A stretch of DNA of 64,000 nucleotides from Escherichia coli (lineage in GTDB: Bacteria; Pseudomonadota; Gammaproteobacteria; Enterobacterales; Enterobacteriaceae). The stretch lies in the NCBI RefSeq assembly GCF_013315695.1, contig NZ_CP054353.1, one strand, 5' to 3'. Each line of letters opens with the position of its first letter. Positions within the stretch are counted from its first letter, which is position 1. The notes below the pieces were generated by a model. It worked only from the letters and a program-made list of their open reading frames with translations. It was not told the origin of the DNA and did no database searches. Both the position numbers and the translations under genes were made by a program. Shown here piece after piece: positions 28,987-30,271 of this stretch.

Positions 28987-29796
28987 ATGTACTGGATTAT
29001 TAACGATAATATTGAGTTCTGGCCTGAGCACCGAAAATTAATATCGGTACATAACGCCGATCTTAACGTCGTTCTGACAACGCCAGCCAGTCGTTGTTTA
29101 TCACTTCTACTTGAAGCTTTTCCTGATGTGGTTGCACAACAAGATTTTTTCACCAGAGTCTGGGAAGAAGAAGGTATGCGTGTGCCAACTAACACGTTAT
29201 ATCAGAACATATCCATTATCAGACGCGGATTTCGCGCTGTTGGTGATACCACCCACTCGCTTATTGCAACCGTGCCGAGAAGAGGATTCAAGATTCATAA
29301 TGACATTAACATACAAAATCATGCAATAAACTCTTCAACAGACGCACATACACACAATGCCCCACCTGCCGTAAAAGGTAATGCGGGGTACAAAGAGAGC
29401 ATTGGTAGCGCAAACAATTTCAATAACAAAATCCTCAAACATATAAAAAGTTATCTAATTATGTTGAGCATATTTGCTATAGGCGTATATTCTGCACATT
29501 GGCTATGGAATAATAATCAACCGAAACCATTCTTCAAGGATTACAAGACTGTTGCGGAAATTAATGGCTGCCATTTTAATGTAACAGAAGATACAATTGA
29601 TGGGTTGAAAGAGTTCGATAAATATAAGACACGGATACTGGATTCGGGGATTAACTGTAAAAAATATCCGTGGTTATACTTCCCTCTTGCAAAATCCTCA
29701 CCAGGGATGATTGTTATGGCATGCAATAAAAACTATAACCAACATGAAGTGGCAGGCTGTTTAACCCTGTCTTACCGTGAGGTTAATCGTGATTGA
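28987..29796 (+). CDS. yqeI: ToxR/CadC-like membrane-anchored winged-helix transcriptional regulator
   Basis: 269-aa ORF with N-terminal OmpR/ToxR-type DNA-binding region followed by a single TM segment (IMLSIFAIGVYSAHWLW). Confidence 0.75.
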   Translation: MYWIINDNIEFWPEHRKLISVHNADLNVVLTTPASRCLSLLLEAFPDVVAQQDFFTRVWEEEGMRVPTNTLYQNISIIRRGFRAVGDTTHSLIATVPRRGFKIHNDINIQNHAINSSTDAHTHNAPPAVKGNAGYKESIGSANNFNNKILKHIKSYLIMLSIFAIGVYSAHWLWNNNQPKPFFKDYKTVAEINGCHFNVTEDTIDGLKEFDKYKTRILDSGINCKKYPWLYFPLAKSSPGMIVMACNKNYNQHEVAGCLTLSYREVNRD

Positions 29797-30271
29797 TTAT
29801 AAAAAAAACTTATTATTTATTTTAGTTTTTATCAGTGGGTTTATTCTCTTCATTGTTTACTCTTATACTGCAGAAAAAATGATATATAATGAAACATGCA
29901 CTGCAAATTGGGTAATTTTTAATGACAAGGGGCGAGCAAATCTTACCATCGACTTTATGTATAACAAAAAAAATAAAACAGGAACTGTTGCGTTGAGCGG
30001 AACCTGGCAACAAGGTAACAGAGAAAGTAAATCAATACGGCGAAATATTGAATACACATGGATTGAAAACTATGACACAGCCCATTTAACATCAAAGAAA
30101 GTTAATAAATTTGAGATCATGGATCAAGTCGATGATGATAGACTTGCAGAACTTATTCCTGATTTTTATGTCTTTCCAGAAAAAAGTGTAAGCTATAATA
30201 TACTAAAGCAAGGTAAGCATGCTTTTATTTTGAGTATTGGTAACAGAGCAATAATGCATTGTGCAAGGTAA
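29777..30271 (+). CDS. yqeJ: small membrane-anchored protein YqeJ (possible ToxS-like partner of YqeI)
   Basis: 164-aa ORF overlapping the 3-prime end of yqeI by 20 nt, with an N-terminal TM helix. Confidence 0.65.
   Translation: MRLIVIDYKKNLLFILVFISGFILFIVYSYTAEKMIYNETCTANWVIFNDKGRANLTIDFMYNKKNKTGTVALSGTWQQGNRESKSIRRNIEYTWIENYDTAHLTSKKVNKFEIMDQVDDDRLAELIPDFYVFPEKSVSYNILKQGKHAFILSIGNRAIMHCAR

Follow-up and report, generated by a model that had tools for sequence, protein, structure and literature searches.

The yqeI-yqeJ gene pair of Escherichia coli as a probable ToxR/ToxS-type signalling cassette

The yqeI and yqeJ genes of Escherichia coli lie in an island that, in the strain studied here, has lost its secretion machinery. 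The question was whether they encode a membrane-anchored regulator with a periplasmic partner, and whether such a pair is still maintained. An earlier note, made from the letters of a 64,000-nucleotide stretch of contig NZ_CP054353.1 (the window), had proposed that the pair mirrors ToxR-ToxS/CadC-like signalling. Our analysis indicates that the two genes very probably make up a co-component cassette for transmembrane signalling, of the ToxR/ToxS-VtrA/VtrC type. The ToxR/ToxS-type reading is correct but already published. Kinch, Cong, Jaishankar and Orth (PNAS 2022) placed YqeI/YqeJ of E. coli K-12 and Sakai among the VtrA/VtrC-ToxR/ToxS co-component cassettes, and the "YqeJ lipocalin", the orthology with MarT/FidL and the conserved disulfides are all stated there (PMC9214523). 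Later papers repeat this classification (PMC10269533, PMC13042144). Since it has been in print from 2022, the classification itself adds nothing new; the small additions made here concern the 8-nt overlap of the two genes, how often relatives have the partner, estimates of selection, and a yqeH homologue in SPI-3.

Bases 27900-30900 of the window are 100% identical to complete genomes annotated with yqeH, yqeI, yqeJ and yqeK. The features are collected in Table 1. The yqeI reading frame is intact at 28987..29796, exactly where the earlier note had placed it, and RefSeq labels its product a winged helix-turn-helix protein. The comparison with Pfam gave a match to Trans_reg_C at residues 28-102 (37.5 bits, cut-off 26.2) and no other domain. 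Among solved structures, YqeI had its best sequence match (E 1.6e-7) in the DNA-binding domain of V. cholerae ToxR, with CadC ranking lower, and structure comparison also supported the winged helix. The N-terminus of YqeI is a winged helix of the OmpR/PhoB type without a receiver domain.

Table 1. Features of the yqeH-yqeK region, in positions of the window.
Feature	Position	Strand	Basis or remark
yqeH, EcpR-like/LuxR-type neighbour regulator	28021..28653	+	GerE 23.7 bits, NCBIfam EcpR 74 bits; association only
yqeI CDS, 269 aa, membrane-tethered ToxR-type transcription regulator	28987..29796	+	ORF, RefSeq, Pfam Trans_reg_C, modelled domains
YqeI residues 1-112, cytoplasmic OmpR/ToxR-type winged-helix DNA-binding domain	28987..29322	+	
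YqeI residues 113-144, variable cytoplasmic linker, probably disordered	29323..29418	+	pLDDT <50 at 117-141; low homologue identity
YqeI residues 155-175, single transmembrane helix	29449..29511	+	Kyte-Doolittle (KD) maximum 1.59; model helix 145-176
YqeI residues 177-269 (93 residues), cysteine-rich periplasmic domain	29515..29793	+	modelled strands and helix, four conserved cysteines
Coupling junction	29779..29796	+	GAGG 29779-29782, 6-nt spacer, yqeJ GTG 29789, yqeI TGA 29794-29796
yqeJ CDS, 160 aa, ToxS/VtrC-like partner	29789..30271	+	RefSeq start, ORF, homologues with PF27292 YqeJ_C; longest ORF from GTG 29777 = 164 aa
YqeJ residues 8-28, N-terminal transmembrane anchor	29810..29872	+	KD 2.54; model helix 3-30
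YqeJ residues 32-160, periplasmic eight-stranded lipocalin-like barrel	29882..30268	+	C37 in first strand, C158 in last
Annotated hypothetical ORF, 26 aa	30304-30384	minus	convergent to yqeJ
yqeK (141 aa, no family match)	30420-30845	minus	convergent to yqeJ

The membrane part of YqeI was located by Kyte-Doolittle hydropathy, which revealed a sole hydrophobic segment (SYLIMLSIFAIGVYSAHWLW, residues 155-175). Its hydrophobicity is borderline, with a 19-residue maximum just below the classical value of 1.6, and K149, H151 and K153 form its cytoplasmic, N-terminal flank. An AlphaFold2 model was then considered in which YqeI was joined to YqeJ through a 40-residue Gly/Ser linker and which was computed from 30 paired homologue sequences. 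Its domain folds were predicted with confidence, and it contained a winged helix at residues 1-112 (pLDDT ~94), a disordered stretch at 117-141 and one long helix at 145-176 (pLDDT 85-93). Both hydropathy and model indicate that one transmembrane helix separates the cytoplasmic part of YqeI from the periplasmic one. In the periplasmic part, the model has strands at 187-192 and 195-200, a helix at 206-219 and strands at 229-233, 240-246 and 259-264; this modelled succession of a strand pair, one helix and three further strands agrees, by description, with the pattern given in PMC9214523. None of the cysteines C195, C224, C246 and C258 varies among 17 close homologues, and in a more distant set each is retained in 28-30 of 30 sequences. 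A profile of this domain found no relevant match among PDB sequences or in Pfam and no relatives outside its own family. These data support YqeI as a membrane-anchored DNA-binding regulator of the ToxR type, and the order of winged helix, one transmembrane helix and periplasmic domain proposed in the earlier note holds in all its parts.

The partner protein consists of a short cytoplasmic tail, an N-terminal transmembrane anchor and a periplasmic eight-stranded barrel. The tail (MIDYKKN) is basic; the anchor after it is strongly hydrophobic. The YqeJ model built from 98 family members (pLDDT 94.1) showed the anchor helix and then eight strands and a short helix. C37 is invariant and C158 nearly invariant among these 98 sequences. 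Conserved cysteine pairs are thus found in the extracytoplasmic parts of both YqeI and YqeJ, which fits an oxidising periplasmic location. The anchor, the modelled barrel and the cysteine pair bear out the earlier description of YqeJ as a small, N-terminally anchored periplasmic protein.

The YqeJ family is small: an exhaustive profile search over 1.84 billion representative proteins retrieved only 128 relatives, and nearly all full-length ones have 150-165 aa and a common layout of tail, transmembrane segment and cysteine-to-cysteine span. YqeJ homologues have a Pfam family of their own, PF27292 YqeJ_C. The comparison of YqeJ itself with Pfam gave no match apart from a chance-level one to DUF2149, and none to the ToxS model. 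The older Pfam FidL_like model did not match YqeJ either and matched only 4 of the 98 family members, weakly. In one cluster from E. coli (strain E22 "o94", 200 aa), the YqeJ_C domain is joined to an SLT lytic transglycosylase domain; this fusion probably arose from a deletion joining yqeJ to the iagB-like gene of the island.

The resemblance of YqeJ to known proteins was assessed with Foldseek. The matches included V. cholerae ToxS (8alo_B, from the ToxR-ToxS heterodimer) and bile-salt-bound VtrC (5kew_B), and ToxS/VtrC was the best fold match. Together with the ToxR match of YqeI, this means that each half of the pair resembles the corresponding ToxR/ToxS half above any other solved structure. 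The likeness of YqeJ to ToxS/VtrC is one of fold and architecture only: sequence identity is 8-9%, a profile of the 98 family members found no ToxS or VtrC chain among PDB sequences at E up to 10, and by sequence YqeJ falls outside both families.

Differences from the known systems were also noted. VtrA/VtrC of Vibrio parahaemolyticus is a bile-salt receptor that controls T3SS2; its identity to the pair is 7-8%, with no profile-level homology. Unlike VtrA/VtrC, YqeJ has a conserved, predicted disulfide between the first and last strands, and unlike VtrA, the modelled periplasmic domain of YqeI has conserved cysteines and lacks a C-terminal helix (PMC9214523). Compared with Vibrio ToxR/ToxS, YqeJ stands apart from the ToxS sequence family (by Pfam and PDB sequences), and the regulons differ. 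GrvA/FidL of EHEC, PsaE/PsaF of Yersinia and TcpP/TcpH of V. cholerae are paralogous or more distant cassettes with LEE adherence, pH 6 antigen and toxT as their respective targets; TcpP was among the matches.

The earlier note had yqeJ overlapping the 3' end of yqeI by 20 nt. The overlap itself stands, and the evidence favours a length of 8 nt. The 20-nt value is the longest-ORF reading only, from GTG 29777, which has no GAGG-like motif 5' of it. RefSeq places the start at GTG 29789, which gives an 8-nt overlap with the end of yqeI (GTGATTGA) and has GAGG 6 nt 5' of it. In other enterobacteria, the start lies exactly 8 nt before the regulator stop in 25 of 42 regulator-partner pairs, usually preceded by the Shine-Dalgarno-like GGAG, GAGG or GGGG; the remaining pairs have mostly 1-, 4- or 11-nt overlaps. 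The start at -20 was found only in the closest Escherichia relatives. The junction of Salmonella marT/fidL has the identical 8-nt geometry (cATGggTAA). Because of the RefSeq start, the GAGG, the 25 pairs and the marT/fidL geometry, we favour GTG 29789 over 29777 as the putative start. Kinch et al. place YqeI/YqeJ among the non-overlapping exceptions (PMC9214523); if the GTG start is used, the two genes do overlap, unlike in that listing. A scan for promoters and terminators around yqeH-yqeJ returned no more sites than shuffled sequence did and is therefore uninformative on operon structure.

To determine how often the partner accompanies the regulator, the YqeI alignment was scanned against one genome per species. 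It revealed 55 related loci in Escherichia, Citrobacter, Kosakonia, Trabulsiella, Enterobacter, Salmonella, Serratia, Mixta, Yersinia and others. After removal of seven short proteins and one pseudogene, 47 full-length relatives with the periplasmic domain remained. In 41 of them the next gene downstream, on the same strand and usually overlapping the regulator gene, is a YqeJ-family ORF. The seven short relatives (L039, L041, L046, L049, L052, L053 and L055; Trabulsiella, Mixta, Erwinia and Izhakiella) have 160-181 aa and consist of a winged helix and a transmembrane segment, ending right after the latter. They have neither the periplasmic domain nor a YqeJ-like neighbour and look like a tethered-only subclass. 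Trabulsiella odontotermitis carries two YqeI/YqeJ-like cassettes ~5.8 kb apart on one contig (L010/L024 and L012/L025), an arrangement that recalls Salmonella STM0341/2 and STM0344/5.

These results bear on whether YqeI could be a solo CadC-like one-component sensor, with YqeJ an unrelated small membrane neighbour. E. coli CadC is such a sensor, with a large two-subdomain periplasmic domain, and it works with the permease LysP as co-sensor instead of a lipocalin-like partner. YqeI lacks the large domain (269 aa against 516 positions in the NCBIfam CadC model), the partner is kept in most relatives with an overlapping junction, and the fold of YqeJ matches ToxS/VtrC best. In addition, the co-expressed periplasmic domains of YqeI and YqeJ form a dimeric complex (PMC9214523). 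We consider this solo reading highly improbable. The term "CadC-like" fits the DNA-binding and membrane-tether part only, so the proposed mirroring is upheld for the ToxR/ToxS type by the folds, gene order and linkage, and falls away for CadC beyond that part.

In the next step, conservation and selection were analysed. The mean pairwise identity among homologues was 0.48 for the winged helix, 0.11 for the linker, 0.28 for the YqeI periplasmic domain and 0.31 for the YqeJ barrel; the two periplasmic parts thus evolve faster than the winged helix. In comparison with two other Escherichia species, dN/dS was 0.15-0.18 for yqeI and 0.13-0.18 for yqeJ, values that are rough because dS is near saturation. 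Both genes are nevertheless clearly under purifying selection. Pairwise identities of the YqeI periplasmic domain and the YqeJ barrel correlate with r 0.91 (partial 0.38), which is not above the r of 0.93 obtained with the winged helix and so carries no information on co-evolution.

The closest counterpart of the pair is found in Salmonella SPI-3, where the gene order is mgtB, cigR, slsA, marT, fidL, misL. MarT is 42% identical to YqeI over 99% of YqeI, and FidL, a member of the same Pfam family (YqeJ_C), is 42% identical to YqeJ (BLASTP, E 1e-41). With both proteins similar over their full length and the gene order alike, MarT/FidL and YqeI/YqeJ form one orthologue group. The marT and fidL genes are co-transcribed, and the phenotype requires both (PMC2827545). 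The two loci differ in their surroundings, SPI-3 with the MarT-activated misL autotransporter gene beside the pair and ETT2 with T3SS genes, and in the start codon of the second gene, ATG in fidL versus GTG in yqeJ. A Salmonella diarizonae locus (L021) was also considered as SPI-3 and rejected, its flanking genes being garL/garR-like.

Beyond misL lies an EcpR_N/LuxR-type gene whose product is 41% identical to YqeH (BLASTP, E 3e-57). The SPI-3 segment compared (L061, 5001-10026) therefore holds homologues of all three regulators encoded at 28021-30271 of the window. In E. coli, the YqeH match to GerE lies just above the cut-off of 23.5 bits and is joined by the EcpR-like match, which agrees with the earlier statement that a LuxR-type yqeH adjoins the pair. 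Two starts are possible for yqeH: TTG 27961, which opens the longest ORF (230 aa), and 28021, as in RefSeq (210 aa); with the Salmonella homologue, the alignment sets in at residue 12 of the 210-aa form. The suggestion that yqeH and the pair make up a small regulatory module gains some weight from the SPI-3 homologues of all three genes, which seem to travel together; the support is one of association.

The pair lies in a part of the window, between ~27 kb and 38 kb, where GC drops to 0.31-0.38, as expected for an acquired island. An IS1 at 38658-39425 cuts eprH, of which ~34 nt of the 3' end remain, and the epa and eiv genes, which make up the rest of the ETT2 secretion core, are absent in comparison with the closest complete genomes. 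On the 3' side of this IS1 there are a truncated HTH gene, xdhC-xdhB-xdhA, actS, tRNA-Gly, ygeQ/GH15, a second IS1 and a truncated uacT. These features were noted at 38624-39425 and 46586-47354 of the window. The stretch 37000-47500 was not found in one piece in any complete E. coli genome, the best coverage being 84%. In the identical RefSeq record, ygeF (31275-31767) is annotated as a pseudogene with a frameshift; here it appears as two overlapping ORFs, 31275-31448 and 31408-31767.

Such a setting raises the possibility that yqeI-yqeJ persists in this strain only as a silenced remnant of a decaying pathogenicity island, without a regulatory role. The region is AT-rich (GC 0.32-0.37) and belongs to a horizontally acquired island; in the window, the T3SS core was deleted by IS1 and ygeF is frameshifted. 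Truncated yqeJ alleles of 92-99 aa also exist in part of the E. coli population (clusters of 329 and 348 members versus 3946 full-length), and in one study deletion of yqeI in E. coli K-12 had no growth phenotype and only a modest effect on expression (PMC13421365). Against this, both reading frames are intact in the window, dN/dS versus other Escherichia species is 0.13-0.18, and the region occurs in 4076 of 5426 complete E. coli genomes. Moreover, deletion of yqeI in avian pathogenic E. coli had clear phenotypes: the mutant lost its flagella, showed transcriptome changes including lower flagellar gene expression, and was reduced in motility, adhesion, serum survival and colonisation (PMC7552227). 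We therefore regard a silenced leftover as unlikely.

For a functional cassette, the following course of events can be proposed. YqeI would reside in the inner membrane with its winged helix facing the cytoplasm, where it would bind promoter DNA while membrane-tethered, and its C-terminal 93 residues would face the periplasm, stabilised by disulfides. The yqeJ gene would be translated from the yqeI mRNA by way of the 8-nt start/stop overlap, and its product, anchored by one N-terminal helix, would display the lipocalin-like barrel in the periplasm. How YqeI-YqeJ senses a ligand, is activated and acts on its direct targets is inferred by analogy with VtrA/VtrC and ToxR/ToxS: the barrel would pair with the periplasmic domain of YqeI and probably bind a small hydrophobic molecule. 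Ligand-bound YqeJ may then stabilise or oligomerise YqeI and so set transcriptional output, with promoters activated or repressed. The outputs reported for avian pathogenic E. coli are flagella and motility, adhesion and serum survival.

A non-sensing YqeJ has a possible, though lesser, claim. It would mainly shield the periplasmic domain of YqeI from proteolysis or aid its folding, as ToxS does for ToxR and TcpH for TcpP, and the signal would lie elsewhere, for example in the redox state of the YqeI cysteines. The four conserved periplasmic cysteines of YqeI are in keeping with this, as is the lack of a known ligand for YqeJ. On the other hand, VtrC and ToxS, its closest structural relatives, bind bile salts in the lipocalin-like barrel (PMC9214523, PMC13042144), and the YqeJ barrel is itself under purifying selection (dN/dS 0.11-0.16). 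Protection and ligand sensing by YqeJ are not mutually exclusive.

The analysis has some practical uses. The yqeJ start at GTG 29789 with its 8-nt coupling overlap can be used in construct design, and the conserved cysteines of YqeI and YqeJ are targets for mutagenesis. The joint presence of yqeH, yqeI and yqeJ homologues in Salmonella SPI-3 as well is a further useful point. With regard to the ToxR/ToxS-type cassette, most E. coli strains carry such a membrane sensor-regulator pair, including strains without the ETT2 secretion machinery, like this one. We tentatively suggest that the YqeJ barrel might recognise, as a receptor, a hydrophobic signal of host origin, for instance a bile salt or fatty acid, and that yqeI-yqeJ might form, with yqeH, a three-regulator unit common to ETT2 and SPI-3, which outlived the secretion machinery by recruitment to flagella, adhesion and serum survival. 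If this is true, recruitment to such core traits would explain why the cassette is intact and under selection where the T3SS has been destroyed, as in this strain.
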